Shown here piece by piece: positions 1-28,005 of a DNA stretch of 28,005 bases; within the stretch, counting starts at the first letter, position 1, and each line of letters opens with the position of its first letter. The notes below the pieces were generated by a model, which saw nothing but the letters and a program-made list of their open reading frames with translations, was not told where the DNA came from and made no database searches. The DNA comes from a virus. Taxonomy: Duplodnaviria; Caudoviricetes. The translations under genes were made by a program, and so were the position numbers. Location of the stretch: IMG/VR virus record IMGVR_UViG_3300048802_000008, positions 1 to 28,005 of that record, one strand, 5' to 3'.

Positions 1-609
1 GTGGAAGAGGGCGGCGAACTGCGCTGTCACGGTGGAAGCCATTGCACATACTGCCCCTGCGCACTGGACCCCATCGGGATACCGTGCCCGAATGGCGACC
101 TCAATCCAATGCTCAAGAGTCCTGCCGAGATGCTGAACTGGATGCTGTCGACCGAGGTTCAATTGCGCCAGGTGAAGGACTCGCTGAAGCAGTTCGTCGA
201 CGGGACTCAGGAACCAGTCGTAACCACGGACGCCAACGGCAAGCACTATACCTATGGGCCCAAGGAAAAGGAGAAGGTCACCTATCCGCTGTTCGAGGGC
301 AATCTGGAAGAGGGATTCAACATGCCCATTCTCGATGCGCTTTTGGACTGGGTTCGCGCCAACCCAAAAGACTTGGTTCCGCGCAAGGGTTCAAAGCCAT
401 GGTTCAACAACCTCCAGATCGGCGCGACGAAGCTGAACAGCTACCTGAAGACAAACAAGCGCGAGATCCTGCACAACAAGATTCGGGACTTGGCAACCAT
501 CGAGACAGTTACGCCGCTGGGAATTACACGGGACGCATCGGTGGACGATGGTCAGGGGTCCGAATATCACACTTGGGACGCTTCAGGTGATGAAGAAATC
601 TCATTTTAG
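1..609 (+). CDS. C-terminal part of a probable PD-(D/E)XK (Cas4-like) phage nuclease; 5' end truncated by the window edge
   Basis: Open frame from base 1 to TAG at 609. The Cys cluster HCTYCPC...C resembles the C-terminal CxxC motif of phage PD-(D/E)XK recombination nucleases. Acidic tail. The catalytic core would lie outside the window. Confidence 0.45.
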   Translation: MEEGGELRCHGGSHCTYCPCALDPIGIPCPNGDLNPMLKSPAEMLNWMLSTEVQLRQVKDSLKQFVDGTQEPVVTTDANGKHYTYGPKEKEKVTYPLFEGNLEEGFNMPILDALLDWVRANPKDLVPRKGSKPWFNNLQIGATKLNSYLKTNKREILHNKIRDLATIETVTPLGITRDASVDDGQGSEYHTWDASGDEEISF

Positions 610-618
610 GAGTAAGAT

Positions 619-670
619 GGGTTTGTCAGGTGTTGAAGCACCGGCAAAGCCTTATCGCCTGGGAGGGCGA
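619..670 (+). promoter_or_regulatory. Structured leader: stem-loop plus a hairpin that sequesters the RBS of the HNH gene
   Basis: TTTGTC-AGGTGTTGAAGCACC-GGCAAA stem-loop, then TCGCC-TGGGAG-GGCGA (655-670), which encloses GGAGG just before ATG 674. Confidence 0.5.
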
Positions 671-673
671 ATC

Positions 674-1404: not shown

Positions 1405-3306
1405 ATGCAAATCGCCGCAATAGCGCTCAAGAACTTTGGAATCTGCGAGGAAACCGAACTCGCATTTGACCAGCCGCTCAACGTCCTGATAGGTGGCCAT
1501 GCGAACGGGAAAACAACAGTGGCCAATGGAATCCGCCTCTCACTCACACCCCGCGCCGGCAAGACAACTGACCGCAAAGGCGGCGGCGCGATGGATAACG
1601 TGTCCCTCGGAGCCAAGAAAGCCGAGATCACAGCTGGCGTGGTCACAGCCAAAGGACCACTCCAGATTGTCACCACGTATGGGCCGGGAGCAGCCCGCAG
1701 GAACCAAACCATCAAAGGTGGCGAGGGCAAAGACGGCGAGAAGAGTCCTGCCGCGGCCTTTGAGTCGTTCCTCGATCGCCAGAGTGAGGCGCTGTCTTGC
1801 GTCCTCGATTCGGACTACTTCTTCAGCCCGAAGACCGAGCAGAAAGACATTCTGGCCGCGCTGATCCTGCCAGCATCGCATGAGTTCGATGCGGAGAAGG
1901 TTGCGCTGGCCGAGAAGCACTTGGGCAAGTTTGTTTGGTCGAAGAGTCCTGTTGCCGTCATCGACCAGGTGTACAGCGCGGCCTATGCGGGCCGGAAGGA
2001 TGCTAAGGCAGCTCTGGGAGCCATCTACATCCCGTCGCAGCCGCAGCGTCCGGAGTACGCCGCCGAGATCGTGCAGGGCAAGATTACCGAGTGCCGCGCC
2101 AACGTTCAGAAGGAGGCCAAGAAGATCAAGGCCGGAGGTACGGTCCAGATCGGCCGCATCGAGCAGAGTCTGGAGCAGGAGAAGGAGAAGCTGGCCACGG
2201 CGCGCACCGACTATGCCGAGGCCCGCAAGCGTACCGGCGAGATCGACCAGGCTGTATTGGACGCGCCCAACCTCAAGAAAGCCGAGCGCACGGCCGCTGG
2301 CAGGACTCTCTGGAACCAGTTGCAGGGCCAGATGGACCAGATCGACCGCGAGATCACCGAGCAGCAGGAAGCCCAGGAGATTTACCGCGACTTGGGCAAG
2401 AACCTTCGCTGCCCAACCTGCACTCAGAAGATCACCAAAGAGTTCGTGGCCGGTGAGATCGCCAGACTCCAGACCACGATTGACGAAGCCGCAGCAACGA
2501 AGATCAACCTCCAGGCTGAGCAGAAGGGCTTGGGCGACTTGGCCAAGGCCGAGACCGTCATCGCCACCCACAAGGCGCTGACCGAGAAGAAGCTCCAGAA
2601 CGTGCGCGACGTGGCCGACGCTACCGGGCGCATCCAAATGTTCGAGAAGTCCGTGGAGACCCTCGACGGCTCTCTCGTCACCGCCAAAGCCCAAGAGACA
2701 GCGCCGGCCGACACAACAGCGCTAGACAACGCCAATACCGAGCTATCCGCATGGGAAGCGCGTTTGAGTCCTGCGCTGAACTATGACACCATCTTGGCGC
2801 AGATCAAACAGGCTGAGAAGCGGCAGCAGGACCAGAAGGAGAAGGTGGATGATCTGGAAACCCTCGTAGCCTACTTCGGAGACAAGGGCATCAAGGCTGA
2901 TCTGATCGCGGCTGGATCTGAGGCGTTCATTTCGACAGTCAACGGTGCGCTGGCTGCGTGGGGATATGAGGCCAAGCTCTCACCAGAGGCCGACAGCTTC
3001 AGTGTCCTGACGCCGACCGGATGGCTGCCGACCAAGCAGCTCTCAGGCTTCGAGGAGTTTATGTTCCAGGTTGCGCTTCAGTGCGCTATTGCAGTCCACT
3101 CCAAATTGAAGATCGTCGTCATCGACGAGGCTCAGACCTTGGTGGATGCCCACAGGACTCGACTGTTCAAGGCCATTCAGTCAATGCTCTCCTCGAAGAT
3201 GCTGGATGAGGCATTCGTCATCATGGCCGATAACCGGGAGACGGTTCCGCAACGCGAGGGGATCGCCTACTACAGAATGGTGGCGGGAAAGGCGGTGCGG
3301 CTATGA
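1405..3306 (+). CDS. SbcC/Rad50-like ABC ATPase (SMC family) with zinc hook
   Basis: LKNFG start, Walker A GHANGKTT, long coiled coils, central CPTC zinc hook, ABC signature LSGFE, Walker B IVVIDE. Confidence 0.88.
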   Translation: MQIAAIALKNFGICEETELAFDQPLNVLIGGHANGKTTVANGIRLSLTPRAGKTTDRKGGGAMDNVSLGAKKAEITAGVVTAKGPLQIVTTYGPGAARRNQTIKGGEGKDGEKSPAAAFESFLDRQSEALSCVLDSDYFFSPKTEQKDILAALILPASHEFDAEKVALAEKHLGKFVWSKSPVAVIDQVYSAAYAGRKDAKAALGAIYIPSQPQRPEYAAEIVQGKITECRANVQKEAKKIKAGGTVQIGRIEQSLEQEKEKLATARTDYAEARKRTGEIDQAVLDAPNLKKAERTAAGRTLWNQLQGQMDQIDREITEQQEAQEIYRDLGKNLRCPTCTQKITKEFVAGEIARLQTTIDEAAATKINLQAEQKGLGDLAKAETVIATHKALTEKKLQNVRDVADATGRIQMFEKSVETLDGSLVTAKAQETAPADTTALDNANTELSAWEARLSPALNYDTILAQIKQAEKRQQDQKEKVDDLETLVAYFGDKGIKADLIAAGSEAFISTVNGALAAWGYEAKLSPEADSFSVLTPTGWLPTKQLSGFEEFMFQVALQCAIAVHSKLKIVVIDEAQTLVDAHRTRLFKAIQSMLSSKMLDEAFVIMADNRETVPQREGIAYYRMVAGKAVRL

Positions 3307-4736: not shown

Positions 4737-4740
4737 AGAG

Positions 4741-5271
4741 ATGCTGACCACCAAAAACTTCGAGACGCGAGCCAATGCTCTGTTCGAGTCCTGCCGTGAT
4801 CGCTGGCGGAAGAAGCTCAACAAGGGCTTGCCTAAGAGCGTGCAGATCAACATTGCGCCAGAGGATGTTCTGCCGTTCAGCCGGCGTGAGTTTCAGGCAT
4901 GGCTCTGGAAGGCCGTAGGACTCCAAGCGGTATCCTGCTGCTACTGCCGCGCGCCAATCGACATTATGAACCTTTCCTTGGACCACAAGACACCGCTCCG
5001 GCGCGGCGGTGGTCCTGAGTTAGAGAACCTCCAGCCGATCTGCAAGGGCTGCAACGGGACCAAAGGCGAGTTCACCCACGAGGAGTATTCGCTGATCGTC
5101 CTGTTCATGGAGGGGCCTGGGGCATCCTTCCGGCAACGCCTTGAGGGGATCATGCGCAATGGTGGCATGGCAATCATGATGAGGTTCTTCCCCGGCCGCG
5201 ATAAGGCAAAGAAGAAGCGCCCAAGTAAGGTGCAGGACTCACTGGAATTTACGGACCTGCCTGACTTCTAA
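4741..5271 (+). CDS. HNH endonuclease family protein
   Basis: CCYC..LSLDHKTPLRRGG..ENLQPICKGCNGTKG, a canonical HNH motif with zinc ligands. Confidence 0.88.
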   Translation: MLTTKNFETRANALFESCRDRWRKKLNKGLPKSVQINIAPEDVLPFSRREFQAWLWKAVGLQAVSCCYCRAPIDIMNLSLDHKTPLRRGGGPELENLQPICKGCNGTKGEFTHEEYSLIVLFMEGPGASFRQRLEGIMRNGGMAIMMRFFPGRDKAKKKRPSKVQDSLEFTDLPDF

Positions 5272-6111: not shown

Positions 6112-6130
6112 TGCTACTCTTCGCTTGAGC

Positions 6131-6340: not shown

Positions 6341-6847
6341 GTGACAGAAACCGAGCAAATTGAAGAAATCTACAACCAGTATCCGCGCAAAGTTGGACGC
6401 CGGGCAGCTCTCAAGGCAATCGAGAACGCGGTGAAGCGGATGGTCAAAGAAGTTATCCTCGACCTTGGCACGCCGAAGGAAAGAGCGTGTGATTCGCTCA
6501 CCGCGCGCCGGATGATTTGCAAATTGACGATGCTGTACGCGAAGAGTCCAGCCGGCCAGAAGCCATCAGATCCCGCGCAGGACTATCGACCGCACCCAGC
6601 GACGTGGTTCAACCAAGACCGATTCTTTGATGATCCTGCCGAGTGGCAGAAACCTAATGGAGGAACCAGCAATGGCCGACAACAGATTGGCACGAAGACC
6701 AGCCGCACAATTGACGCACTCAGGGCAGCTATCGCAAAAGGATCAGATCATGATCGCTCTGGGGATACTGGCAATCAAGAGGAACGGGGAGTACGACCAG
6801 GAGACGCTGGAGACGTTTGCGGCAGGACTATCGAAGGAACCCTTTGA
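6341..6847 (+). CDS. Phage replication initiator / replisome-organiser C-terminal-domain-like protein
   Basis: YNQYPRKVGRRAALKA and YRPHPATWFNQDRFFDD match the conserved C-terminal module of phage replication proteins; GTG start with GGAG RBS. Confidence 0.7.
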   Translation: MTETEQIEEIYNQYPRKVGRRAALKAIENAVKRMVKEVILDLGTPKERACDSLTARRMICKLTMLYAKSPAGQKPSDPAQDYRPHPATWFNQDRFFDDPAEWQKPNGGTSNGRQQIGTKTSRTIDALRAAIAKGSDHDRSGDTGNQEERGVRPGDAGDVCGRTIEGTL

Positions 6848-7399: not shown

Positions 7400-7593
7400 T
7401 CCAGATCCCGCTCGAAGAAAGCTTTCTGTGTGCCGACTGCAACACGATCTGCAACTCGGCAATCCAATGCCCTTGTGGATCGCAGCACGGCCTATTGAGT
7501 CTGGCCACGGTCCTCAACAGGACACAGCGAATCCCCGAGATCAAACGGGAAGTCCAAGAACTTTTGAACGCCATGGATGAGGTTTGCGCGTGA
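7396..7593 (+). CDS. Small zinc-finger protein
   Basis: CADC...CPCGS motif; ATGA/GTGA coupling with both neighbours. Confidence 0.7.
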   Translation: MIQIPLEESFLCADCNTICNSAIQCPCGSQHGLLSLATVLNRTQRIPEIKREVQELLNAMDEVCA

Positions 7594-8945
7594 CCGCTTC
7601 CAACTTTCAATTTGATTCAAGATTGCCGAGCAATGTAGAGGCCGAGAAGACCATCCTCGGCGCGATTCTGCTGGACAATGCAGCCTGGGAAGAGGTCCGC
7701 GCAGGACTCAAGAGCGATGACTTTTCGCTCGACAGCCACAAGCGCATCGTTAAGGTAATCGCAGCTCTGATGAAGAACGGCCATGCGGTTGACATTGTGA
7801 CGCTGGCCGCTGAGTTAGATGCGCGCAAAGAACGGGATGCTATCGGCGGTATCGCCTATCTGGCCAGTCTTACTGAGGGGCTTCCACGTCGGCCCGTGAT
7901 CAGCGAGTATATCCGAATTGTTCGTGATAAGTCGGTCCTGTGCAAGTTGATGAACACTTGCTCTCAGGCTATCTCGCGCGCGGCAGAGCAGTCTGAGTCA
8001 GGACTCGTTGTAATTGCGGACCTGATGAGCCAGTTAGAGAAGCTGACCACGCCCAGCCAGAGCGCAAACACAGCGCCGGTCCAGAACTTCATTGTGAGTG
8101 TGGCCGATGAAGTGGTGCGCGACTATCAGCAAAAGACCACGCTCTACATCCCATCCGGTAACTCATGGTTCGACGCGAAGACAGGTGGGGGCTATCGCTG
8201 CGGAAAGATCACCATCGTCGCGGCCAGGCCCAAGGTTGGTAAGTCATCGTGGGGAATCACATCGACGGCATTCAACTGTATGCGCGGTACGCGAGTCGTT
8301 TGGTTCAGCTTGGAGATGGACAAGAAAGAGTTATCTCTGAACTTGGTTCCCTACGTCGTCGATCTGCCTAACATCGTGGCTACGCGGCCAACTGTGAGGA
8401 CTCCTGAGCAACAGGCACTGGTTATGCAGGGTCTCGGAACTCTCGCAGACTGGCCGTGGACCGTTCACGATCAGGATATGGACTGCGATGAGGTTTGCTG
8501 GATCATCGACCGAGAGACACGAGATCCGAGTCCTGTCCTGTTCGTGCTCGACCATTTCGGAAAACTCAAAGGGGCCGGCAAGGTCTTGCGAGAGCGGTAC
8601 GTCGAGAACTCTGACAGGATCATGAAGAAGATGCGCCATAAGAACGCGGCCATGCTGAACCTGATGCAGTTGAAGCCAGTCCCGCGAGAGTTCGCTGACA
8701 AGCGTCCACAGTCAGAGGACGTAAAAGAGAGCGGCAACCCTATTGAGGACTGTTTCGCGTGCGTCCTGCTGCACCGCTACCAGGACAAAGAGACGCTGAA
8801 GATGACCAAGAAGGCGAACATCAATCTGGCGTTGATACGGGGCGGTGGGTCATCGGGCAACGTGGATGGGGAGTTCAATCCTCGCAAGCTATGTTTTGAG
8901 GCAGAGGCCGAGCTTGACTATTCAGATGGGAGTTACTTCGAATGA
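7590..8945 (+). CDS. dnaB: Replicative DNA helicase, DnaB family (divergent C-terminal domain)
   Basis: N-terminal LPSNVEAEKTILGAILLD..DF..DIVTL..IGGIAYLASL; Walker A AARPKVGKSS; FSLEM; KRP..DVKESG. Confidence 0.9.
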   Translation: MTASNFQFDSRLPSNVEAEKTILGAILLDNAAWEEVRAGLKSDDFSLDSHKRIVKVIAALMKNGHAVDIVTLAAELDARKERDAIGGIAYLASLTEGLPRRPVISEYIRIVRDKSVLCKLMNTCSQAISRAAEQSESGLVVIADLMSQLEKLTTPSQSANTAPVQNFIVSVADEVVRDYQQKTTLYIPSGNSWFDAKTGGGYRCGKITIVAARPKVGKSSWGITSTAFNCMRGTRVVWFSLEMDKKELSLNLVPYVVDLPNIVATRPTVRTPEQQALVMQGLGTLADWPWTVHDQDMDCDEVCWIIDRETRDPSPVLFVLDHFGKLKGAGKVLRERYVENSDRIMKKMRHKNAAMLNLMQLKPVPREFADKRPQSEDVKESGNPIEDCFACVLLHRYQDKETLKMTKKANINLALIRGGGSSGNVDGEFNPRKLCFEAEAELDYSDGSYFE

Positions 8946-11341: not shown

Positions 11342-11382
11342 CTAACCGCCAACCGCCGCACTCAATAGGAGAAAGAACCGCC

Positions 11383-13128: not shown

Positions 13129-13136
13129 ATTTTGAC

Positions 13137-13259: not shown

Positions 13260-13286
13260 CAACCAATCTCTTAAGACGAGGAGCTT

Positions 13287-15019: not shown

Positions 15020-15024
15020 TGGGT

Positions 15025-15783: not shown

Positions 15784-15788
15784 CCCAT

Positions 15789-16371: not shown

Positions 16372-19300
16372 TTACTTCCTTCTGGCGGATTTGATGGCGT
16401 TGATGCGCTTTGCGTTGAGGAACGGTTTCAGTTGCTCACGCTCGGCCGCTGTGGTCTTCGGATCTTCGTAGACGGCCTTGGCGTCAGTATAACTGAGTTC
16501 GAACTTGAAGACGCGCTCCAGGTAGTCGAGGTTCCGCGCTCTGGCTGCTGCGCGAATGCTGTGTTGCGTCGGATGCTCGCGTGAATAGTCCCGCTCCACT
16601 TGCTGGTCTGGTGTCAGCGGAGTGTGGGGATGGCGCACGGCATTCAGCTCGAGGGCCTGAGTGAGCGCATGGGAGCGGTCTAAGCTCTTTGGCGCGCCGC
16701 CGATCATTCCGGTGAATCGCAAAACCTTGCTTGCCGTGTCCTGCGGGCCGTAGGTACGCAGCCAGTTGTCGGCTGACATTGGCGTCAGGTCGCCGACGAC
16801 GTTGTATTTCAGGCCCTGCCACATCTCTTTGTAGAGAGGGGCATTTGGATCATAAACGTAATCGCCATTCCAGTCGCTATTCGCCATAGTGTTCCAGGCA
16901 TTGATGGCAACATCAGACACCTTACCTTTGGCGTAATTCTTTGGATTCTCAAAGCCGTGCTCGTAGTCTTTGAGTCCTGTCGGCCACGACATTCTGATGG
17001 GTTCTCCGTGCTCGTTCACCGGGCCGGTACGCGGGTGCATGGCCTCCATGGCAGCATTGGTAGCCACAGACATACCGTTGACCTCAGAGTCTTGTTGCGC
17101 CCACTGCCATGGATATTTTCCGGTTGCCAGTTTCTCGGTCACGCTGCCGAGGGTGCTGGTCAACAGAGCCATCGACAATATCCATCCGGCATTGACTCCG
17201 AGTTGCGGCAGCCGGGACGTGGCGCGCCGGGCCTGGCTCAACCAGTCGCCTTTCTTGGCCTGTGCATCCATCTTCTCGAACATCTTGTCGTCGAACATTT
17301 TGGAGCTTGTCTGCTCCTTTACGCCCTGCACCGCACCGCGCCAGGAACCAAGTGCCCACGTAGCCGACCGGAAGAAGAACTGCGCCGCGCTCTTCAAGTC
17401 ATTGTTGAGGTAGAGCGAATCCCAGTTCAGTTCGCCGAAACGGTTGTCCGTGGTCTGGGCAACCTCGCGCGCAATCTCCTCCTCGGTCTTCTCGCCGGAT
17501 GCGATCGCGTAACTGTACTGCGCCAGTTTGGTCGAGAGCAGTTCGACGGCAAATGCCCACTTCGACCGCGGGATGTAGTGATTGAAGAGCGGCGTCATCA
17601 GGCCATGACTGAGCCACGGCAGGAACTTCAAGAGACCTTTGCCGATCTCTCCGTCTTTCCAGGCGTCGAGGCAGTGGTCTCCAAAGGACCCTTGGAACTG
17701 CTGGGCGATGTTCCAGCGCAGGCCACCGGAGAAGAGCAATTCCATCAGGTGCGGGAAGTCCGGATACCGCTCCGCGAACTTCTTGCCCTCTGGAGACTCA
17801 AGGAACTCATCAGGATTCCGAGCGTACTGGATCGTCTGACCGCCGCGCTTGATGGCCGTATAGGGGGCAATCATCGCCATGGCAATATCTGCGAGTCCTG
17901 CGGAGACCTTGGTCGGGTCCAGGCCGCGAATCCCTTGGTTGACCACCTTGTCCATGCCGGTGTTGAGCACGGAGGCCATATTCTCGACCGTGATGTAGGC
18001 CCAGTGGAATGCCGAGATAGCCAGCTTCATCTCGGTCGAGAAGTTCTTGAGCTTCACGAACGCGCTCAGGACCTCGCTGCCTTTTATGTGGTCGACGCTC
18101 AGGTAGTTGTTGAGCAGCCGGGCCGCGTCCTTCTGGATTACCCAGCGTCCTGTCTGGACCGGGAAAGTGTCGCCATCGATCGATTGCACCATGCGCCAGA
18201 CGTTGCCGCTCTTGTCGTCGACATAGGCGTAATCCTTTGGCAGTTTCTTGCTGCCCTTCAGAAACATCGCCAAGCCCTGATCTTTGAAGTTGTACCAGGC
18301 GTATCGGGCCGCGACGAACTTGGCACCCTCCTGCAAGCGCCGGAGCAGCATCTCAACAGGATTCCCTAAAGGTTCCGCTCCATCGGCTACGGCTTCCTTC
18401 AGGGTGTACCGCTGCTGCTTCATGAACGCCTTGGACCCTTCAAACGGCCGACGGGACACTTGGCCAAGTCGGGCGATCTGCTGATCCTCTGTGAGCTCCT
18501 TCTCGCCGCCGGGGGCTACCTTGTAGCGGTTGGGGAAGTAGTTGGCCTTGTCGCTCAACTCCACTTGCTGAGTCCTGCGCTTGCCGAGGTTGACTGCTTC
18601 CTGCTCGCGTATCCTCTGCTGGCTCAGGACTGTCTGCATGAACTCCTGGGCGTGCTGTAGATCTTGCGTGGGCTGTTCTACGCCTCGCTGCCAGCGGTCG
18701 ACGAACTCCACTCGGTCATCAGGCGACAGCTTGTCGAGCATCTGGCTGATGCTTTGCAGGAACTGGCCGGCCTCAAAAAGACGGAGCGCAGGCTCACCGA
18801 GAGCCTTCCCCATGATGTCGAGCGCGTCTGTGTCCGCAACGGCACCCGGAGCGAACGCCGCGGCGACCTCGTGGCCCATGGCCTTGGCACTCTTGCCGGT
18901 GGACTTTACCGCACCGAGAGCTTCCTTCCAAGTTCCAACGGCTGCTTTCTTGGCGTAGCGTCCTATCGCAGCGAAGCTCGCTAGGGGCGCGAATGAACCC
19001 TCTTCTCCCTTCATCAAATCTTTGAACCGGGACGGACTCTTGGGTTTGTCGAGCTCCGCCTTGGCCTTCTCGTCGTGCGTCCGCGCTTCGTCAACGTGGC
19101 TCGGATTGGCATAAAGCGCGATCTTGCCCATGATGGCCTTGAGCGCGTCCAGTTCCCGGCCTTCCTTGACCGTGGCGCGCATCAGGCCGCCACTCGAAGC
19201 GAACTCCCCACCCTGCACCATGTCCAGCAACTTCGGATCGAGGAAGAACTTGCCGGATGCGGACTTGGATTTCTTGGTCCTGATCTCGAATCCTTCGCGG

Positions 19301-22300
19301 CGGTTGGATGGGCCGGTGATGCCGATCTCTGATCCGCTGCTCTGGAGGTACTGGTCTCCGGTTTCGAGGAATGACTTGGCTCCCTCCGGCGTCCGCATAG
19401 CGTAGGTTCCGCTCACGTCCTCCTTGATGTCGAACTTGGACGGCATCTGGATACCGAGTTTCGTGGTCCCGTCGTCCATCGTGAAGCTGATAATCCTGCC
19501 TTTGGACCCGGCCTTGAGTTCTCCGTATGCGCCCAAGAGGTTGCCTGTGATGATCTTGGCCTTCTGCCGGTCGCCGCCGTAGCCCTTGAAGAGTTGCCGC
19601 ACGTCCGCGTTGCGTCCTAGATTCGATGTGGCCAGCGAATCCATCTGTGAGCCGGGCACCTTGGTCTGCCGCAGGCCGCTGTTGACTGCGATGGTGAACT
19701 GGAGCGCACTGGGAGCGTAGGGGTTGCCCGATGGCTTCTTGGCTCCCTCTATGTTCGTTATGACTCCGTTGTAGCCTTCGCCATTGATGTCAACGTGTAC
19801 TCCGACGCCAACCCGGTAATCGTTCAGAAGCTGGCGTCCTCGGGTACGCATTTGCTGGGCGCGGTCCACCGTTCCCTGATGTGTGAGTCCTGCCAGGTAG
19901 GTCTTGTACATCGCCTCGAAGTGGTCATCCAGCGCGCGGGCCGCCAGCGTGTCGCGTTCTCTCGGCGGGAGCTTCATCGCATCAGGACCGAAAGTTTCGG
20001 CGATCTTCTCCATGACCTCTTCGGGAGTGAACGGCTTGCCTTGACGCTTGATCGAATACTCGCCGTAGTGCGCGTCCTGTCCGAATGGAGAGCTTGGATC
20101 AACTCCCTGATACATGCGCTCGATGTGAGTCTCACGGGCCGCAAAGTCGTAGGTTCGTGGTTCCAGATCGTTCTGTCCGGTCTCGTCGAGGAAGTCGATG
20201 TAGTTGGTGTAGGCCTCAGAGATTGAATCCATGAACTCCTGCTGCTGGGCTACGGGCAGGAGAGCCGAGTGGCCGGTTGCCTTCATGGCCAGCCCCTCGT
20301 TCGCGCCGGCTTGGCCCTGCTCGTTCGTGTCGGCACTCAAGCCAAGCATCCGGCTCATATCTGGATTGTCGAACAGGTATTGCGCGACGATCTTGTCACC
20401 GTATTTGTTCATCAAGTCAACGGCCTGAACTGAGGTCGCGGCGCGGGTGTTGCTGGAGACGTTGGCGTTCAGCGACTTCATCTTTTTGGCGAGGTTCATC
20501 TGTGGACGCTGCTCGGCGGGCAATGCGCTGGCCAGCATTGTGTAGAGCGGGAGAGCTACCTGTCCGGTTCTATTGATGCGACCGAGCATCTGGATAACCA
20601 CATTCACGTCCGCCGCAGGCTGCCCAACAATCATGTGTCGTGGCCTCACATCCCTGAAGTCGTGGGAAGCATGAAGAGAGATGCCCGCCGCGGCTGCGCG
20701 GTTGATAAGCAGTGCATCAAGGCCACCATTATTGAATTGCATCTGGGTGTTCACACGGTCTTTGCGTTCGATGCCAGGAACCTTCGTCAGTTTCGGAATC
20801 TCGCCGCTATAGTCGATGGCCCATTCGCGTCCTGTTATCTCGGCGATCTTGTAACCGGCCTTCGTCACTCCATTGCGGATGTAGTCGATGGGAGAAACCG
20901 GAAGATCTACTTTCAGCGCGTCGATCAAGTCTTGGGCCTCATCGTAGGCCTCGCGCACCGCAGGGCTCAAATCACTCAATGGAACCGTGACGCGCCTCTT
21001 ATCTCCCTCCAGGCCGGTTTCGTTGTAGTAGCGGGTCCGCATCAGGGTTCTGTCGGTCACTCTCGAATAATCGAGACCAGGAAGCAAATCGTCTTCAGCA
21101 AGATTGTTCCCGTCTATGTACTCTTCAAGGAATGATCCTGCTGTGTTTTCAAGGGCATATATCGGGCGCTCACCGCGCTCGATTGCCGCGACGATCTGCA
21201 CTATTGAATCGTCGCACTTCAGAGCCAGAAGCAGTTGACGAACGAGATTATGAACAGTGGAAGAAAACTCCATGTGGCTAACCGTGAGTCCCTTGCTTCC
21301 AGCCGATTTCCCTGCCGCCTTGGCTTCAGTTACGATGCGCGCAAAGTCAAGGTTATGGAACATCTTGTCGGCTTTCATAATCGCGCGCAGAATTTCTGTT
21401 ACCTGGTCTGATATGCGCGTAGCCTTCGCTTTGCCCGCTTCGTCTGTCTGATTCTTGAACTCTATCCCGTCGAAGGAACGCTCACGGCGAACGAACTGCC
21501 CAGTCTGCGCCAGCAGGCTTGTGAGGACGGCTTGGAGAGGCGCGCCGCCGGCAGTGATGGCTGAAGCAACCAGATCGCGGTCTGGGATGGCAATCGATAT
21601 GTCCGTCATGCCAGCGTAGAGCGGAAGATTGTCCGGCCGCTTTGCCCATGTGGCAGAGAGGAAGACAACGCCTTTTGAGGCTGTTGTCAGTTCAGTGAGG
21701 AAGTCTCCAGTGTTCGAGTCGCCACCTGCATTGTGGCTCTCGTCCAAGATGAAGATGGCGTTTGAGGCAATCCGCTGGAGCGTCTGTTGCTGCCGGTTGT
21801 CCTCCTTGTTGATCTGCGAGTAGGTCAAGAAGACTGCGTTGCTGCCCTTGGGTAGTTCTCCGGTCTCTCGTATCCTGTCGAGCACAGGACGCATCGCACC
21901 AGAGTTACGGAAGATTTTTGTTCCAGTGGAAGAGTCCGTGATCGAGGCATCAGCATTGAACAGAAGCGGGGTGATGGTCTGCCCAGAGCCGATGTTCTTC
22001 AAGTCGCGGTACATATCGGAGAACAGGTTTGCTTTCTCTGTCACGAAAATAGGGAGATGGCCATGCAGGTCTGCCCAGCGAATCATGGCGGCTGCAACGC
22101 GACCTTTTCCTACGCCAGTTTGGTCGGCTACGATCAAAGCCTTGCTGCGCTGCATCTGGTAGATTGCCGCGGCGATGGCGTCCGTCTGAATGCCCATAAA
22201 CGCCTCGTGCATCTCTTCCACGCTGGAATAGCCAAGCTGGTCCGTAACAAACTGGTCGAGGTCTCCTACTTCTTCGTGGACAACCTCCATTGCTCTCAGC

Positions 22301-25300
22301 ATGGGATCTACGAGAGCTTTCGGCGCCATGATCCCCACGTCTTTCTTTTCAGACATTGGTTTGAATGTCGCCTGGAACTGGTTGCTCTCATCCGCTAGAG
22401 CATTTGCAGAATGTCCATCAGGCTTGGCAGGTTCTCGTCTGACAGTTCGCGGGGCGGGTTGTCCTTCTGCCAGTCGATCTGAGAAAGCAATATCTCCATC
22501 AGGTCGAGTTGTAGAATCTGCGCTGCCCACTGCGAAGGAGGGCACCCTACCGGAATGGCTGATAGGTCCGACCCCACCCCGGACGACGTTCCCGCTGCTT
22601 CCAGTTCCCGCTTCGCTCGTATCGGGTTGTCCTGAATCAGTCGGTCGATTTGGTCCTGTAGCAGTTCTGGATACTGCTCCGGTGTCGGCGCTTTCGTCCC
22701 GCACGGGACCGCCAGCGACATCGTTGGCCGGTCGTTTCCCTGCAAGATTGGTGCCCAGATGTTCAGCAGCTTTGTCATAAACCTCTCCCCACGTCTTCAG
22801 ACGTTGAATGGCGGCGGCATCCGGGCTTACCTTGGCGGACCGGACTCGACCGTCGATTGCGATCAGGCGAACAGGGAACGATGCCCCCTGGCGCGAGTAC
22901 AGGTCTCCATCAAGCTCGAAGTCGGAGACGACGTTGTAGTGAGCGTAGAGCCAGTTGAAGAATGGCCGGACCTGGTTGGTGATCTCGCCCGGCTTCTCCC
23001 GGTCTCCGGCGGCGATGATGATTGCCGCCTTCCCAGCATCCTTCATCGCTCCCAGGGCCTTAGCCACAATCAGATGGTCAAGCTTCACCACGTTGTAGCC
23101 ATCGACCTTGACGGGTCCTGCCAGCGGGCCGAATGGGGGGTTGGCGACCACGGCATCCACTCGCTCGACAGGACTCCATATCGTCGCGTCGTGCTGAGTG
23201 ACGGTGAATCCCTCATCTTGGAGTGTGGCGGCGCGCGCCGGGTTCAGTTCGTTGGCTTGCGTCATCTTCGGGTTGGCCGCGATCAGCAGCGCGCCATTCC
23301 CTGCTGTCGGCTCGTAGACGGTGGTCGTGTTCCAGGTGATGCCCGCGAAACTGTCAGCGATGAATGCTAGTGGTAGCGGCGTAGAGTACGCTTGATTCGC
23401 AATGCTGGTGCTGGTCCTGATGCTCAGGTTCGGCTGGCCCTCATAGAGTCCGACGAGCGCTTCATAGACGCCGCTCCCCCTGCCGTAGCGCCCTTTCAGG
23501 ATCATCTCTGAGGCAATCCGGTTCAGCATGGCCTCGTAGGCCTCTTGAGCCTCCTTCATGCGAATCTGGTCTGGTTCGGAGCCATCGAACTCAGTGACGA
23601 TCTTCTTCAGGTCGTTGTAGTTCTTGGGTCCTGCGCCGTGCTCGAACTTGAGTTGCAGGGCGTCAACGAGGGTCGCATCGGCGGCGGGTTCTGGCTTGGC
23701 TTCGACTTGTTTTTCAGGAGGTAACCCACTGAAGAGAACAACAGGGATTGTCTTCTTACCGTTGCGCGCGAAAGCTCCCAACCGATGAATTCCCTCGATG
23801 CTCTCGATACGAGACGGATCAGTAAGATCAACCGTCGCAACGATTGGAGTGATTTCTCCTGATTCTTGGAACTCTTCCCATAATTGTCTATCGCGCGCTT
23901 TGTTGCCTGGGTAATCAAAGATCGTCTGGGGGAACGCAGAGACCGGTACTTGACGTACTCCCGGCAGCCTGAAAGCGTCATCGTCCAACTGGTCTACAGC
24001 AGACTTCACATCCTTTGGATCAGGAGCTAAGATTCGCAGACCTTCGATCTCTTCACTGTAAATCTGAGGATAGAGGAGGTCAACTTTTTCTAGTCCCGTG
24101 CCGGGCGATGAGGATGTCTTTGGCGTCTCGGCAGGACTCGCAATCGGCTTCACGTCCTCAATGTTCTTGTTGACTGTTGAGCCGCCGTCTGTGATTCGTA
24201 CTTTCTTGCCATCTGTCCAGGCTACTTCTCCTGTACGCTCCTTGCCCTTGTTGGTCCTGTAGGTGACCTTGTCGCCCTTCTTCAGAGCCTTGCGCTCGGC
24301 TTCCTGCTCTTTCAGGAACTCCCCAAAGTCCTTCACTTCAGGCTCGGCCGCCGCTGGCTTCTCTACCGGCTTGAGTCCTGCTTTGAACTGCTCCTCGGTC
24401 AACTCAGTCCCAAACGCCAGATTGAAGTCGAAGAACGGTTTGTCGCTCGGGTCGTGATTCGTGGCCGCAACCGCAAACGAGGAGAACGCCGACCGAACCT
24501 TGTCAATCGGATCGTCCAGCTTCTTGAGGATGGCCTCTACGACTGGACCCTGCTCGTAAGTGTCCTGTCCACGGAATATTTGGTCGTACCGCTCTGTGGC
24601 CGCAACGATCTGCTCTTGAAGGTTCCATCCATCTCCTGCTGAGAGGATGCCTTTGATTGCTCCCATCGTCCCTAAGAGCTTCTGTTTCAGGAAGTCCGGT
24701 GTCTGCTCTATCACTTCTGGGGGCAACAGTTCACCGAGTAGGGCATCTCCTACTTTGGCTTTGGCGGAAGTGGTGAGTAGTCCGGTCTTTGCGTTCACGT
24801 TCTCTGCACTATTGGTGATAATACCATCGTTCACCAGAGCCTGAGCAATAAAGTTTCCAGTGTCCTTGTGTCGCAGAACGTCGTCGAGTGTGGCCGTGGG
24901 GTCTGTTGAGGCGTGGTCATCGACCAGTGCGGTGAGTCCTGTCGCGGCCTCGGGGGGGAGCGTAATCGGCTTCAAGATGGACTTCGGAATCGGCTGGACG
25001 CTCTCCTTATCGAAGAGGTACATCTCCGCCGAGTCTTTGTCGGACTGGGAGGGTTTGTCGCGATTGGCCTCGAACTGGCGCAGGTTGAACTCATCGCCCC
25101 TGGCGCGCGCTTCTGCAATGGCGTTGTCCATCAGCCATTGGTCAACCCGCTTGACGGTGTTTCCAGCCTTACGGTTTGAGTCATTATCGATCTTCGGGAA
25201 GGGAGTTGTCTTGCGTCCTGTCGCCGTCAAGACCACTTCTCCGGCGGCCAGCATCATGCCAACTTCTCCGCGCTTAACCTCTTTAGATTCTCCGGAGACT

Positions 25301-27759
25301 TCCTGTTTTGCCACTTGATTTGAGGCTTTCGTCTCACCTTCAGCCGCTTTCGTCTCAGGCTTCGGCTGCTCCGTCTCAACGTCTTCCGCTTTCAGCTCGA
25401 CCGGCTTCTGCTCGGCTGCCGGTGCGCCCCCCTTTCCCAGTGCGTCCAGCGCGGCCTGAGCGCCAGTCTTCGAACGCGCCGCCTTGCGAATGTCAGCAGA
25501 CTCGATCTCCTTGGAGTGGTAGTAGGTGCCGCTGAAGGGTCCTGCGCCCTTCACTTGCGTCCGGGTAAGATGCTCCACTCCGGCCGGCTTGAACTCGGAC
25601 CCGGCAGGAACATGAAGAAAGGGATGCTCGCCTTTGCCGACAGCATCTGCCCAGCGTTGCAACTCTTCTCGACTCTGGCCCGGCGCGGCTGGTGTGCCCA
25701 TCATCCCGGCTTGCGCGTGATCCTCTTGCCGGTTGGCGCGCCGCTGAATCTCCTGCTCGACCATCCGCTTGCGAACCCCGGCAGTCACGGTTGCAGTCCT
25801 GCGGATCAGCGCGTCAAGTTGCTCCGAGGTCGAATCCATTGGGGCCGCGCCCAGCACCATAGAAGCCTTGCGAACTGCGGGCGTATCCGGGATTTCCACC
25901 GGCTCTGTGGAAGTTGTGGATTTCGAGGCTGTCTTTTCACCTTCTGGGGCGATGGCTTGGTCACGTTCCTCCTGAGCTTGCTTGGCGCTCTCCTGGCGCT
26001 CTTGGATGGCCGTCTGCTGAGCGTCCTGCTGGGCCTTGGCCTGTTCGGTCTGCCGGTCTACCTCATCGTTGATGATCTTCACAGCAACGGTCTGAGCGGC
26101 CTTCTGGCTATCGACGTTGACCACCTTGCCGTCAGGACCAATGGCCGTCTTCTGGCCGAAGAGCCATTTGGCGAGGTTGCCGGTGGCTTCGAGGATGGCA
26201 GTTGGGCGTAGTTTTGGTGGAAGTGCCTGAATCGCCGCTCCGGCTTTGTCTACAGTGTCCTGCGTCAGAAGTCCATCATCCATTCCGGCAGGCTTCGGCA
26301 TCTGCATTGAGCCGGGGTCTCCTGGCTTTGGAGGAGGCGGTGGGGGCGGCGCAAGGCCGGCAATCTGGGCGGCTTGGTGGTCAATGCTGGCGGCGCTGGC
26401 CGCTATCTCGGTGATCGTCTGGGATTGAGCCTTTTGCTGGAGAGCAACTGCATCCGGCGGCGCGGGCGGAGCAGGGCGCGGAAGGCCGGCGGAAGCGAAC
26501 ATCTGGCCCACGACTTGCTGTGCTTGCGCAGGACTCGTGATCGGAATTGGCTTCCCGCTCATTCCGAGAATGCTACCCTTGGCGATAGCTTGCTGGATGG
26601 TCTGCTCGTGCGCTTGGATGGTGAGCTGCTCCCGCATCTCGGCTGGCGCGTTCTGAACCAATCCTGCAATCTGCGCAACGAGTTTCGGGGTTACCGTTCC
26701 AGCCGGGTCACTGGACTGGAGATAGAACTTCGGAGCGCCTCCCGCGCTGGGCGATGGCGGCGGCCCGCTGGGAGTTTGCGGCGCAGAGGATGACGGCGCT
26801 TCTGGCTCACCGGGTAGTCCTGTCGTCGGCCCTTGGCTGCTGAAATCCACGTTGGGGTTGCTGCGCGGTTTGGCCCAGCCAAATTTGAAAGGTCCAACCT
26901 GGCCAGCCACGCCCACGGCATCAGGACTCGTCGCGGCCACTCCTTGAACTCTTCCTCCAAAGGCTGAAGCGCGCACTCGGCTGGTGGCTCCTTGTTGCTC
27001 TGTACTCAACTCCAATCCAATTGCCGTGTGATAAGCCATCGGAGCAAAGAATCCTATCGCATTGGCGAACTCGACTTCATCTGGCGTGAGATTCAGTTTT
27101 TGAGCAACTGCTTTCGCTCCGGCACCCGTAGCCAATCCCTCTGCATAGCCGATGGCCATTCTGATCGGAGATTTAGCGATTGCCACTCCCATCGGAATAG
27201 TTGCCGCTTCGGCTAATCCGCTGAGCGTCTCTGTCCCGCCGCGGGCGGCCTTACTCCAATCCCCAGCACGGATACCGGATGCGGTTGTGCCAAGTCCCTC
27301 CCCAGTCTTATATGCTCCCACCGGAACGGATGCGAGTATCGGATCGGCCGCCTCCAAAGCTTGCTGATCGGAGGGATGTTGGGCGACTTGCAGTTGAGCG
27401 TTTTGCTCTTCCGCGCTCTCAGGACCATGTACAAACTGACGGACAGCGTTCACCGCGCGCTGGTCACGAGCCACCTGAGCAGACGATGGCGGCGCTGGCA
27501 TACCGCTCAACACGTCCATCACGGATGCTTTTTCGACTGGCTGATACGGCCTATTGCCAGCGGCCTGAAGTGGAGTCTGCATCCCTGGAACAGCGCCAGC
27601 CACATTGCTCATGTCATTGGCATACGGGTTGACAGGACCATGCTGCTGGCCTTCAACTTCAACATCGGAAGAAGAAAGGGATGGCGTCTGGTCTCCACTG
27701 GATTGTGGAGGCGCGAGTTCTACATCTGTCGAGGACAGATTGACCGGTGAAGTGCCCAT
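16372..27759 (-). CDS. Giant (3795 aa) DarB-like polyvalent protein: N6-adenine MTase plus strawberry-notch SF2 helicase, probably a virion-injected protein
   Basis: MTase: QAYSTPLPLA, VYEPTAGNGALL (~23300), VVANPPFG (~23135). Helicase: ADQTGVGKGR (~22110), ILDESHN (~21740), LSATWAKRP, EITGR, GISLHA, QMLGRINRTGQ (~20575). ParB-like IEGIHRL (~23790). Pro/Ala-rich N-terminus. Confidence 0.88.
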   Translation of the reverse strand: MGTSPVNLSSTDVELAPPQSSGDQTPSLSSSDVEVEGQQHGPVNPYANDMSNVAGAVPGMQTPLQAAGNRPYQPVEKASVMDVLSGMPAPPSSAQVARDQRAVNAVRQFVHGPESAEEQNAQLQVAQHPSDQQALEAADPILASVPVGAYKTGEGLGTTASGIRAGDWSKAARGGTETLSGLAEAATIPMGVAIAKSPIRMAIGYAEGLATGAGAKAVAQKLNLTPDEVEFANAIGFFAPMAYHTAIGLELSTEQQGATSRVRASAFGGRVQGVAATSPDAVGVAGQVGPFKFGWAKPRSNPNVDFSSQGPTTGLPGEPEAPSSSAPQTPSGPPPSPSAGGAPKFYLQSSDPAGTVTPKLVAQIAGLVQNAPAEMREQLTIQAHEQTIQQAIAKGSILGMSGKPIPITSPAQAQQVVGQMFASAGLPRPAPPAPPDAVALQQKAQSQTITEIAASAASIDHQAAQIAGLAPPPPPPPKPGDPGSMQMPKPAGMDDGLLTQDTVDKAGAAIQALPPKLRPTAILEATGNLAKWLFGQKTAIGPDGKVVNVDSQKAAQTVAVKIINDEVDRQTEQAKAQQDAQQTAIQERQESAKQAQEERDQAIAPEGEKTASKSTTSTEPVEIPDTPAVRKASMVLGAAPMDSTSEQLDALIRRTATVTAGVRKRMVEQEIQRRANRQEDHAQAGMMGTPAAPGQSREELQRWADAVGKGEHPFLHVPAGSEFKPAGVEHLTRTQVKGAGPFSGTYYHSKEIESADIRKAARSKTGAQAALDALGKGGAPAAEQKPVELKAEDVETEQPKPETKAAEGETKASNQVAKQEVSGESKEVKRGEVGMMLAAGEVVLTATGRKTTPFPKIDNDSNRKAGNTVKRVDQWLMDNAIAEARARGDEFNLRQFEANRDKPSQSDKDSAEMYLFDKESVQPIPKSILKPITLPPEAATGLTALVDDHASTDPTATLDDVLRHKDTGNFIAQALVNDGIITNSAENVNAKTGLLTTSAKAKVGDALLGELLPPEVIEQTPDFLKQKLLGTMGAIKGILSAGDGWNLQEQIVAATERYDQIFRGQDTYEQGPVVEAILKKLDDPIDKVRSAFSSFAVAATNHDPSDKPFFDFNLAFGTELTEEQFKAGLKPVEKPAAAEPEVKDFGEFLKEQEAERKALKKGDKVTYRTNKGKERTGEVAWTDGKKVRITDGGSTVNKNIEDVKPIASPAETPKTSSSPGTGLEKVDLLYPQIYSEEIEGLRILAPDPKDVKSAVDQLDDDAFRLPGVRQVPVSAFPQTIFDYPGNKARDRQLWEEFQESGEITPIVATVDLTDPSRIESIEGIHRLGAFARNGKKTIPVVLFSGLPPEKQVEAKPEPAADATLVDALQLKFEHGAGPKNYNDLKKIVTEFDGSEPDQIRMKEAQEAYEAMLNRIASEMILKGRYGRGSGVYEALVGLYEGQPNLSIRTSTSIANQAYSTPLPLAFIADSFAGITWNTTTVYEPTAGNGALLIAANPKMTQANELNPARAATLQDEGFTVTQHDATIWSPVERVDAVVANPPFGPLAGPVKVDGYNVVKLDHLIVAKALGAMKDAGKAAIIIAAGDREKPGEITNQVRPFFNWLYAHYNVVSDFELDGDLYSRQGASFPVRLIAIDGRVRSAKVSPDAAAIQRLKTWGEVYDKAAEHLGTNLAGKRPANDVAGGPVRDESADTGAVSRTATGPNRPTDSGQPDTSEAGTGSSGNVVRGGVGPISHSGRVPSFAVGSADSTTRPDGDIAFSDRLAEGQPAPRTVRREPAKPDGHSANALADESNQFQATFKPMSEKKDVGIMAPKALVDPMLRAMEVVHEEVGDLDQFVTDQLGYSSVEEMHEAFMGIQTDAIAAAIYQMQRSKALIVADQTGVGKGRVAAAMIRWADLHGHLPIFVTEKANLFSDMYRDLKNIGSGQTITPLLFNADASITDSSTGTKIFRNSGAMRPVLDRIRETGELPKGSNAVFLTYSQINKEDNRQQQTLQRIASNAIFILDESHNAGGDSNTGDFLTELTTASKGVVFLSATWAKRPDNLPLYAGMTDISIAIPDRDLVASAITAGGAPLQAVLTSLLAQTGQFVRRERSFDGIEFKNQTDEAGKAKATRISDQVTEILRAIMKADKMFHNLDFARIVTEAKAAGKSAGSKGLTVSHMEFSSTVHNLVRQLLLALKCDDSIVQIVAAIERGERPIYALENTAGSFLEEYIDGNNLAEDDLLPGLDYSRVTDRTLMRTRYYNETGLEGDKRRVTVPLSDLSPAVREAYDEAQDLIDALKVDLPVSPIDYIRNGVTKAGYKIAEITGREWAIDYSGEIPKLTKVPGIERKDRVNTQMQFNNGGLDALLINRAAAAGISLHASHDFRDVRPRHMIVGQPAADVNVVIQMLGRINRTGQVALPLYTMLASALPAEQRPQMNLAKKMKSLNANVSSNTRAATSVQAVDLMNKYGDKIVAQYLFDNPDMSRMLGLSADTNEQGQAGANEGLAMKATGHSALLPVAQQQEFMDSISEAYTNYIDFLDETGQNDLEPRTYDFAARETHIERMYQGVDPSSPFGQDAHYGEYSIKRQGKPFTPEEVMEKIAETFGPDAMKLPPRERDTLAARALDDHFEAMYKTYLAGLTHQGTVDRAQQMRTRGRQLLNDYRVGVGVHVDINGEGYNGVITNIEGAKKPSGNPYAPSALQFTIAVNSGLRQTKVPGSQMDSLATSNLGRNADVRQLFKGYGGDRQKAKIITGNLLGAYGELKAGSKGRIISFTMDDGTTKLGIQMPSKFDIKEDVSGTYAMRTPEGAKSFLETGDQYLQSSGSEIGITGPSNRREGFEIRTKKSKSASGKFFLDPKLLDMVQGGEFASSGGLMRATVKEGRELDALKAIMGKIALYANPSHVDEARTHDEKAKAELDKPKSPSRFKDLMKGEEGSFAPLASFAAIGRYAKKAAVGTWKEALGAVKSTGKSAKAMGHEVAAAFAPGAVADTDALDIMGKALGEPALRLFEAGQFLQSISQMLDKLSPDDRVEFVDRWQRGVEQPTQDLQHAQEFMQTVLSQQRIREQEAVNLGKRRTQQVELSDKANYFPNRYKVAPGGEKELTEDQQIARLGQVSRRPFEGSKAFMKQQRYTLKEAVADGAEPLGNPVEMLLRRLQEGAKFVAARYAWYNFKDQGLAMFLKGSKKLPKDYAYVDDKSGNVWRMVQSIDGDTFPVQTGRWVIQKDAARLLNNYLSVDHIKGSEVLSAFVKLKNFSTEMKLAISAFHWAYITVENMASVLNTGMDKVVNQGIRGLDPTKVSAGLADIAMAMIAPYTAIKRGGQTIQYARNPDEFLESPEGKKFAERYPDFPHLMELLFSGGLRWNIAQQFQGSFGDHCLDAWKDGEIGKGLLKFLPWLSHGLMTPLFNHYIPRSKWAFAVELLSTKLAQYSYAIASGEKTEEEIAREVAQTTDNRFGELNWDSLYLNNDLKSAAQFFFRSATWALGSWRGAVQGVKEQTSSKMFDDKMFEKMDAQAKKGDWLSQARRATSRLPQLGVNAGWILSMALLTSTLGSVTEKLATGKYPWQWAQQDSEVNGMSVATNAAMEAMHPRTGPVNEHGEPIRMSWPTGLKDYEHGFENPKNYAKGKVSDVAINAWNTMANSDWNGDYVYDPNAPLYKEMWQGLKYNVVGDLTPMSADNWLRTYGPQDTASKVLRFTGMIGGAPKSLDRSHALTQALELNAVRHPHTPLTPDQQVERDYSREHPTQHSIRAAARARNLDYLERVFKFELSYTDAKAVYEDPKTTAAEREQLKPFLNAKRINAIKSARRK

Positions 27760-27762
27760 AAG

Positions 27763-28005
27763 CTATTGTGCTCCAACAATCAATTTCCCCGTCTGAGGAT
27801 TGATTCCTTTGACGACTGCCGGCTTTCCGTTGACCATGACGGTCTGACCGGGCGTGAAGGTCTGCCCTTTATATTGGAAGGCCTGCGGCGGCGCAGCGGC
27901 GCGCGGCTGTTGTACAGGCGCTTGTGCGGCACTTGCGGCAGGACTCGCCACCGGCTGCCCATCCACGCTCCAGTTGAACTTGTCGTCGATGACGTGATGG
28001 GGCTG
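27763..28005 (-). CDS. C-terminal end of an upstream (probably virion) gene, truncated by the window edge
   Basis: Frame is open from 28005 (QPHHVIDDKFNWSVDGQP...) to the stop at 27763, with a 3-nt gap before the giant ORF start. Confidence 0.65.
   Translation of the reverse strand, partial: QPHHVIDDKFNWSVDGQPVASPAASAAQAPVQQPRAAAPPQAFQYKGQTFTPGQTVMVNGKPAVVKGINPQTGKLIVGAQ

Follow-up and report, generated by a model that had tools for sequence, protein, structure and literature searches.

Why does a short, asymmetric word recur along a whole phage contig, within genes as well as between them, and what reads it? The stretch analysed here, which we call the window, is a 28-kb phage contig (28,005 nucleotides), in which the initial annotation had reported the octamer GAGTCCTG as about 30-fold over-represented. 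Our recount returned the same 33 exact copies (18 on the plus and 15 on the minus strand), the first at 117 and the last at 27939-27946, against a mean of 1.51 and a maximum of 5 in 100 dinucleotide shuffles. For the 21 main ORFs, 29 copies compare with a mean of 1.82 and a maximum of 7 in 500 synonymous-codon shuffles. The excess measures 22-24x under the Markov and dinucleotide nulls and 16x under synonymous-codon shuffling, smaller than first estimated, and the GC content is 57% rather than the roughly 58% that had been assumed. Since the enrichment outlives synonymous-codon shuffling, a codon or amino-acid artefact is ruled out, as had been argued.

The stringent unit of the motif is the hexamer GTCCTG, of which GAGTCCTG is the commonest extension in the window:

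117..27946, both strands: 98 copies of GTCCTG, 33 of them GAGTCCTG (counts with Markov and shuffle nulls)

It is the top over-represented hexamer of the window, with 20.0 copies expected under an order-2 Markov model, and lies 58 times on the plus and 40 times on the minus strand. Its 88 copies in the codon-shuffle set, against a mean of 20.85, were never approached in 500 shuffles. The base that follows GAGTCCTG is C in 23 copies, T in 7, A in 3 and G in none, exactly as first described. The six peptides said to be encoded by the motif are all present, and its occurrence both inside and between genes was borne out, with 30 of the 33 octamers within ORFs and three outside (6138, 13251 and 13796). 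Of the reported near-matches, GCGTCCTG (11 vs 1.8), GTGTCCTG (10 vs 0.8) and GGGTCCTG (4 vs 1.0) are indeed enriched, whereas GAGTCCG is not (6 vs 6.07). A tandem repeat was rejected because the GTCCTG copies are dispersed through the window, a structured RNA because no Rfam or tRNA match was found, and a fixed-spacer dimer site because inverted copies have no preferred distance once orthologous duplicates are removed.

Related phages, host-like DNA and outgroups

A DnaB search returned 11 loci, nine of which were enriched 4-8x for GTCCTG and two short ones weakly. Ten related contigs (G001-G010) were read whole (G006 to base 40,000 of 40,111). In all ten, the hexamer is enriched 2.2-4.9x on both strands and over the full length, as well as on the sense and antisense strands of genes, at about one copy per 300-700 bases, including in essential genes. 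Four of them (G001, G005, G008 and G009) carry a contractile-tail module in which terminase, portal and sheath were recognised, while the other six resemble the window and carry a giant late protein. BLAST detected no similarity between the two virion modules; the packaging site suggested by the initial annotation is thus disfavoured, as the word is common to phages whose terminase, portal and tail genes are dissimilar. Both virion types share an annealase-like gene, a PD-(D/E)XK exonuclease, a Rad50/SbcC-like ATPase, DnaB and a strawberry-notch SF2 unit.

The word occurs in dialects. At position +1, the window type prefers C or T and the contractile-tailed type prefers A, and G006 shows little preference for the first G. 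G010, a provirus, encodes a tyrosine integrase whose gene carries no GTCCTG. In the 799-aa DnaB frame of this contig (51379-53778, L231), the match fell into two segments, which hints at an insertion about as large as an intein. A second dispersed word, (GC)TTATCAA, is enriched about 9x on both strands in the contractile-tailed four only (31 vs 3.5 in G001, 20 vs 2.0 in G005, 29 vs 3.7 in G008 and 33 vs 3.3 in G009; 2 vs 1.3 in the window), and its copies tend to cluster rather than repel each other (e.g. L013-L015).

Within the close annealase group, 26/26 loci are enriched for GTCCTG at P<0.001 (998 vs 192, many of these contigs being redundant), compared to 0/81 distant loci (734 vs 670; 80 of them are the best 80 of 347). 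The word is usable as a marker for binning this phage family. A DnaB scan of bacterial genomes found no prophage relative, and a GroEL search among cultured phages returned matches of 32-35% only, with no cultured relative.

A phage Dps gene (L016:2742-3221) is present in five of the ten relatives, and its nearest named cellular homologues are from Terracidiphilus and Acidobacteria (64-69%). To judge from these homologues, the family probably infects Acidobacteria, likely Acidobacteriaceae. Host-like DNA was chosen by Dps, as 23 loci at ≥72% identity to the Terracidiphilus protein, and may not be that of the true host. In these 198 kb, GTCCTG occurs 89 times vs 98.7 expected and the GAGTCCTG octamer 7 times vs 5.6. 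The corresponding values are 260 vs 219 and 5 vs 9.9 in 57 other Dps-flanking loci (432 kb), and a 50-kb Granulicella plasmid holds 32 GTCCTG vs 34. Under the codon-shuffle null, host-like DNA gave 30 copies vs 50 on the sense and 30 vs 33 on the antisense strand. The initial annotation had proposed the host chromosome, related phages and unrelated genomes as controls, and all three came out in favour of a phage signal: GTCCTG is unenriched in 630 kb of host-like DNA, from which the true host may differ, enriched in 10/10 related contigs, and without a comparable counterpart in outgroup phages.

In ten whole outgroup genomes (G013 to base 100,000), no word was comparably enriched on both strands; the same was true of 12 distant Rad50-like loci (L342 was dropped as a family member) and of 48 distant SF2 loci plus phage BS-TP4. 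The outgroup G014 has the family's gene layout and avoided words, including CACCTC, a RecT annealase, and exonuclease and Rad50-like proteins 26-32% identical to those of the family. Its giant protein carries a DarB-type helicase in place of the strawberry-notch unit, and GTCCTG is unenriched (42 vs 39).

The window itself completely or nearly completely avoids GGATCC, CTGCAG, GCATGC, GACGTC and CAGCTG, as well as the non-palindromic CACCTC (0 vs 13.6) and GAGCCC (2 vs 15.8), which suggests restriction systems in the host. Palindrome avoidance was rejected as a host marker, since GGATCC, CAGCTG and GCATGC are also avoided by many unrelated phages. CACCTC is avoided in the window, G002-G004 and G007, and not in G001, G005, G006 and G008.

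Site anatomy, spacing and polarity

After codon-position correction, a common flank pattern was found in both virion types, and control hexamers did not show it. The extended site reads T-8, T-5, not-G-3, G-2, A-1, GTCCTG, not-G+1 (C/T+1 in the window), G+3, G+6, not-A+11, A+13 and not-A+15, a graded footprint of 24-29 nt around the core. A+13 is present in 0.33-0.42 of the sites in 10 of the 11 contigs (0.27 in G006) against a background of 0.20-0.22, and in 0.20-0.24 of GTCCTG sites in host-like and outgroup DNA. T-5 and T-8 are partly context effects, as control hexamers reach 0.26-0.32. A matrix of the distal positions only, trained on five other contigs with some training sites orthologous to window sites, gave the 98 window sites higher ranks than 687 sites from host-like and outgroup DNA (P 3e-12).

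Copies on the same strand avoid each other at short range. In the pooled contigs, 113 same-strand GTCCTG pairs lie 12-120 bp apart vs 229 expected; this ratio of 0.49 is the lowest among 255 hexamers with at least 500 copies (median 1.31). Opposite-strand pairs, with a ratio of 1.32, show no avoidance, and with orthologous pairs collapsed there were 124 same-strand pairs against 129 + 129 opposite-strand ones. Permutation of the strand labels placed the same-strand pairs 10-160 bp apart below expectation in 11/11 contigs, with P<0.05 in ten (8 vs 16.9 in the window, P 0.0007), and the deficit ends near 160 bp. Kilobase-scale evenness was not found, even among the best-scoring third of sites, and regardless of strand the spacing CV was not below random in 11/11 contigs. 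The uptake-type reading of the initial annotation is weakened by this strand-specific spacing rule, which sets the word apart from uptake-type words, whose more-than-random evenness disregards strand.

For polarity, we oriented the genomes on the Rad50-like gene and defined strong sites as those with G-2 and A+13. These favour one orientation in early genes (75:29, 0.72), late genes (119:69, 0.63) and unassigned DNA (46:25, 0.65); the pooled P values overstate certainty, as related genomes are not independent. Late genes are transcribed oppositely to early ones, and control hexamers flip with transcription while the strong sites keep their orientation. No switch point was found in eight near-complete contigs. 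Strong sites thus carry a polarity of about 2:1 that is fixed to the genome and not to transcription. Bare GTCCTG in early genes is unbiased (195:202), and T-5 sites in early genes lean the opposite way (70:101). An absence of strand polarity, by which the motif had been set apart from Chi, therefore holds for the 33 window copies taken alone (P 0.73) and fails across the family, where 63-72% of strong sites share one genome orientation.

The word had been described as either selected or mutationally maintained. Only the former stood, given the codon shuffles and a conservation of synonymous sites that had been proposed as a check: within the core, synonymous third positions show a conservation of 0.68-0.91 vs 0.51-0.75 for codon-matched positions, in 9/9 genome pairs (reciprocal orthologues at ≥55% identity, the giant gene left out). 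A mutational origin would be expected to deplete the one-mismatch neighbours of GTCCTG, yet 0/18 are depleted (O/E 0.89-1.8), and GTCCCG (1.8) and ATCCTG (1.59) are enriched. This pattern is one of graded binding preference and not of repair bias.

Taken at the level of sequence, the word appears to be real, selected on DNA, phage-specific and apparently undescribed, and to act like a directional protein-recognition site. A literature search, which covered few subscription papers, returned no account of a GTCCTG word or of a phage-encoded Chi-like word.

Candidate readers

The genes of the window that bear on the question are the following:

1..609, plus strand: C-terminal part of a PD-(D/E)XK (RecB-family) exonuclease, candidate reader or cutter
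1405..3306, plus strand: Rad50/SbcC-like ATPase (phrog_77, E 2.5e-18; AAA_23), candidate partner
4741..5271, plus strand: HNH endonuclease, of two interchangeable types in the family and not found in G006
6341..6847, plus strand: initiator-like ORF, whose match to phrog_270 is confined to the C-terminal half (profile positions 177-297 of 383)
7584..8945, plus strand: DnaB-like helicase, mosaic in the family (31-84% identity) and uncoupled from dialect
9746..10993, plus strand: solitary N6/N4 DNA methyltransferase (N6_N4_Mtase, E 7e-49)
13802..16367, minus strand: three conserved late genes without a family match, absent from the contractile-tailed relatives that carry the word
16372..27759, minus strand: polyvalent protein of 3,795 aa, with an adenine-methyltransferase domain (NPPF at residue 1540) and an SF2 ATPase unit
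~19411-22383, minus strand: strawberry-notch-type SF2 ATPase unit of the polyvalent protein (AAA_34, Helicase_C_4), rival reader

The exonuclease fragment is 90% identical to the C-terminus of G002 14398-15708, which matches PDDEXK_1 (E 5e-8) and the phrog_69 exonuclease. Its alignment shows invariant cysteines at 18, 249, 252 and 263, one N-terminal and three C-terminal, a layout that we take to be that of the AddB/Cas4 iron-staple nucleases. The Rad50-like ATPase displays Walker A at residue 30, CPTC at 336 and LSGFE at 546, and its gene occurs in 11/11 motif-bearing contigs. A search with the nuclease profile returned 389 unnamed relatives with no further functional clue, and PDB sequence searches with this profile and with the N-terminal 1,586 aa of the giant protein were empty. 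In the Atlas, the nuclease C-terminus matched DUF2800 best, at 0.87, and the SF2 C-terminus also stayed below the threshold of 0.9; neither the PDB sequence search nor the Atlas revealed a sequence-reading domain in the exonuclease or the Rad50-like ATPase. The name annealase derives from a weak similarity to the Rad52 fold (Z 6.1, rmsd 5.2, 134 aligned) and from the RecT gene in the same slot of G014; Foldseek with the annealase model gave nothing at E≤0.001, its top row being 80alpha Sak at E 0.052.

The stop-to-stop frame of the initiator-like ORF begins at 6296, and most family members carry only the C-terminal half of the initiator; in G007, the slot is taken by a DUF1376 protein. The intergenic element that precedes the initiator-like gene of the window (6112-6340), possibly an operator or promoter region, is conserved in G002, G004 and G006 and contains a hairpin with the motif in its stem, a TGGCGGT loop and several downstream CCGCCA repeats near TTGACA; the hairpin (6112-6190) folds weakly (z -1.84). 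A small ORF at 5302-5715 encodes tandem 11-residue repeats (PARAEYQRVMA-like) and has homologues in G003 and G008. A GroES/GroEL pair, followed by a gene with a Tad2-like anti-Thoeris domain, lies at 11003-13793, its GroEL being at most 35% identical to any cultured-phage record, and G002 has a Tad3 gene in the matching region. By eye, the three late genes look terminase-like, a putative label. The SF2 unit occurs in 11/11 contigs, in the contractile-tailed four as a stand-alone 971-aa gene without a methyltransferase. Stand-alone strawberry-notch genes of this kind (L015:4142-7057, G001) encode 971-1,014 aa and adjoin lysis genes; at least 25 such proteins were seen.

Several candidates are unlikely as readers: the initiator, as G007 carries the word with a DUF1376 protein instead; DnaB, as it is a mosaic of 31-84% identity to which dialect is uncoupled; the methyltransferase of the giant protein, which is missing from the contractile-tailed four; and the packaging proteins, as two non-homologous packaging modules share the core. 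The solitary methyltransferase, whose target the motif had been proposed to be, has homologues in only two of the ten relatives (G004 and G007). This leaves the recombination module, the SF2 unit or a host enzyme. To judge from the distant loci and the outgroup genomes, neither of the two phage modules is generally accompanied by a comparable word. Dialect distance correlates with divergence of the Rad50-like protein in the seven window-type contigs (Mantel rho 0.76, P 0.0045), the best of nine proteins tried on n=7 related genomes. Over all 11 contigs, it correlates best with divergence of the SF2 unit (rho 0.84; P 0.13 within the window-type seven).

We tentatively favour, at a probability of roughly 0.4, the word being a Chi-like stop or cut site for the phage's own end-processing module. 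The RecB-family exonuclease and the Rad50-like ATPase would read the word and hand over to the predicted Rad52-fold annealase. Phage DNA ends would be resected only up to the next correctly oriented site, with the cut presumably falling near +13, and the stopped ends would be repaired or start recombination-dependent replication. DNA without the word would be degraded further, which may allow discrimination of self from non-self. The exonuclease (10/11), the Rad50-like ATPase (11/11) and the annealase (9/11) are present in every motif-bearing contig that covers the region, and the word persists where initiator, loader, DnaB, HNH or methyltransferases have been replaced or are absent; both observations support a Chi-like reading. 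So do the Rad50-like divergence that tracks dialect in the window-type contigs, the polarity of 0.63-0.72 without a switch point, and G014, with its RecT annealase, divergent exonuclease and Rad50-like proteins and no word. The same-strand deficit at 10-160 bp in 11/11 contigs is as expected of a directional reader, and initiators reduced to their C-terminal half would fit recombination-dependent replication. Furthermore, the A+13 preference parallels that of the RecBCD nuclease domain for a certain 3' flank at Chi (PMC5041463, excerpt). On the other side, the strawberry-notch unit accompanies the word just as consistently and is the best correlate of dialect over the 11 contigs, and a primase would account at least as well for the 5' biases to -8 and for the 3'-G-Y-C core. 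The phage ORF scans made turned up neither an SF1 motor nor a Chi-reading subunit of the RecC/AddB type, and since five whole outgroup genomes have the same kind of module without a comparable word, word reading would be an invention of this lineage. Still more tentatively, this would amount to a phage-encoded Chi system, in which the Rad50-like ATPase and the iron-staple-type RecB nuclease read a private word of 24-29 nt, cut near +13 and load the Rad52-fold annealase, telling phage from host or competitor DNA by sequence and not by modification; reader and word would drift together into dialects, and the module would carry the word into unrelated virion types.

A doubtful but possible alternative is an optimised priming site: read 3'->5', the core is G(cryptic)-T-C-C-T-G, and a primer copied from it would begin with pppAGGAC. 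In that case either the host's DnaG, brought in by a phage protein, or a phage primase that escaped recognition would act as reader on rolling-circle or recombination intermediates. The 5' biases span ~13 template bases, roughly the length of a DnaG primer; same-strand exclusion with an edge at ~160 bp fits a refractory distance after each priming event, and a 2:1 polarity without a switch fits rolling circles. The last three bases of the core, CTG, form the recognition trinucleotide of proteobacterial DnaG (PMC2978363), and the core contains the human PrimPol site 3'-GTCC-5'; it obeys the general primase rule of a cryptic base followed by two pyrimidines (PMC5934617), with a strict purine G, T over C and a strict C, the T-to-C variant GTCCCG being the only one tolerated at its position. 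The distal 3' element, A over C, recalls the '-10 element' 3' of the T7 primase site (G/T)2GTC (PMC12839067; all three sources in excerpt). However, a CTG inside a hexamer is a modest coincidence, and no primase or polymerase family match was found in the ORFs scanned (25 in the window, 38 in G002, 35 in G001 and 80 further), a scan that can miss remote homologues. Neither the word nor its flank pattern is seen in host-like DNA, kilobase-scale evenness per strand is lacking, G014 has DnaB but neither a primase match among 30 ORFs nor the word, and G007 keeps the word at genome rate with a DnaB only 32% identical to that of the window.

We consider it improbable that the strawberry-notch-type SF2 translocase loads at the word or uses it as a mark; this protein probably enters the cell together with the DNA and would protect or move the incoming genome. 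This unit is the sole large gene outside the replication block common to both virion types and is 95-96% identical among the contractile-tailed four, which share one dialect; such ATPases can bear a C-terminal winged helix (PMC5512222, excerpt), and G014, with its DarB-type helicase instead, has no word. Yet the dialect correlation is non-significant within the window-type contigs, 48 distant loci and five whole genomes with a methyltransferase plus this unit show no comparable word, and the unit of G006 holds a single GTCCTG in 2.9 kb. In L261, with a unit that shares 72% identity with the contractile-tailed type, there are 6 copies vs 3.8, and 14 sites of its lineage lack the G-2/A-1/A+13 flanks, both on short contigs. 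A host protein, such as a defence system or host AddAB/RecBCD, that reads the word and spares DNA bearing it is less probable again: dialects do co-vary with avoidance of CACCTC, a proxy for host range, but the Terracidiphilus-like, other Dps-flanking and Granulicella DNA show no enrichment (the true host's may differ), and G014, which shares the avoidance profile without the word, weighs against a purely host-encoded reader. Finally, we give very little credence to the word accumulating without benefit of its own through biased repair or methylation-linked drive of the HIP1/Vsr type. Its density does rise with gene residence, from 1.46 per kb in unique genes to 2.97 in genes common to at least six contigs (2.76 outside called genes), as it would in any slow process, but the neighbours are undepleted, no methyltransferase is common to all contigs, and a graded footprint with strand-specific exclusion would be unexpected. 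An uptake-style molecular drive by biased recombination (PMC2817400, excerpt) is conceivable but would need the same kind of reader as the Chi-like model.

That a phage family places an asymmetric word of its own in essential genes implies that phage DNA metabolism includes an unrecognised step at which sequence is read. Resection under sequence control by a Rad50-type phage module would be new if the Chi-like reading is true; if the priming reading is, the novelty would lie in an extended start site for DnaG that arose in a phage without a primase. The site anatomy (strict core, A+13, 160-bp same-strand exclusion, 2:1 polarity and two dialects) makes the question of the reader directly testable.

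Comparison with known systems

Phages are known to avoid short words (restriction sites) and to borrow host Chi, a site at which nuclease activity is switched and recombination stimulated; Chi in E. coli is 5-10 times less dense than the GTCCTG word. Stoperators are oriented with transcription and mostly intergenic, whereas GTCCTG is enriched sense and antisense in genes, where most octamers lie. Unlike a pac/cos-type signal, which belongs to one terminase lineage, its core is common to two non-homologous packaging modules.

With Chi, the word shares over-representation of an asymmetric sequence beyond codon effects, an orientation bias of strong sites independent of transcription, a 3' flank preference and a RecB-family nuclease encoded by the word-carrying genome (PMC5041463, excerpt). 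It differs in residing in the phage, with Terracidiphilus-like DNA (the true host's may differ) at 89 vs 98.7, in placing the distal preference at +13, where Chi has it at +4 to +7 (same excerpt), and in its candidate machinery, a stand-alone PD-(D/E)XK nuclease and a Rad50-like ATPase, next to which the ORF scans made showed neither a RecC/AddB reading domain nor an SF1 motor. Primase sites resemble it in the 3'-G-pyrimidine-C core, graded 5' flank, distal 3' element and strand-specific use (excerpts of PMC2978363, PMC12839067 and PMC5934617), but GTCCTG has a stringent core of six bases, no primase was found among the ORFs scanned, and kilobase evenness is absent. DUS/USS likewise come in hundreds of non-palindromic copies, in both orientations and in coding sequence, with a stringent core, soft flanks and lineage dialects (PMC2817400, excerpt); they belong, however, to competent bacteria, while GTCCTG belongs to a phage, is not enriched in host-like DNA or between genes (2.76 per kb outside genes), and has a spacing rule per strand only and a genome-fixed polarity. 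HIP1 of cyanobacteria is also a short word of very high density inside genes (PMC4390886, excerpt), from which GTCCTG differs in being non-palindromic, with no shared methyltransferase and undepleted neighbours. By their defining tests, the GTCCTG word stands apart from Chi, DUS/USS and HIP1 and is a member of none of them.
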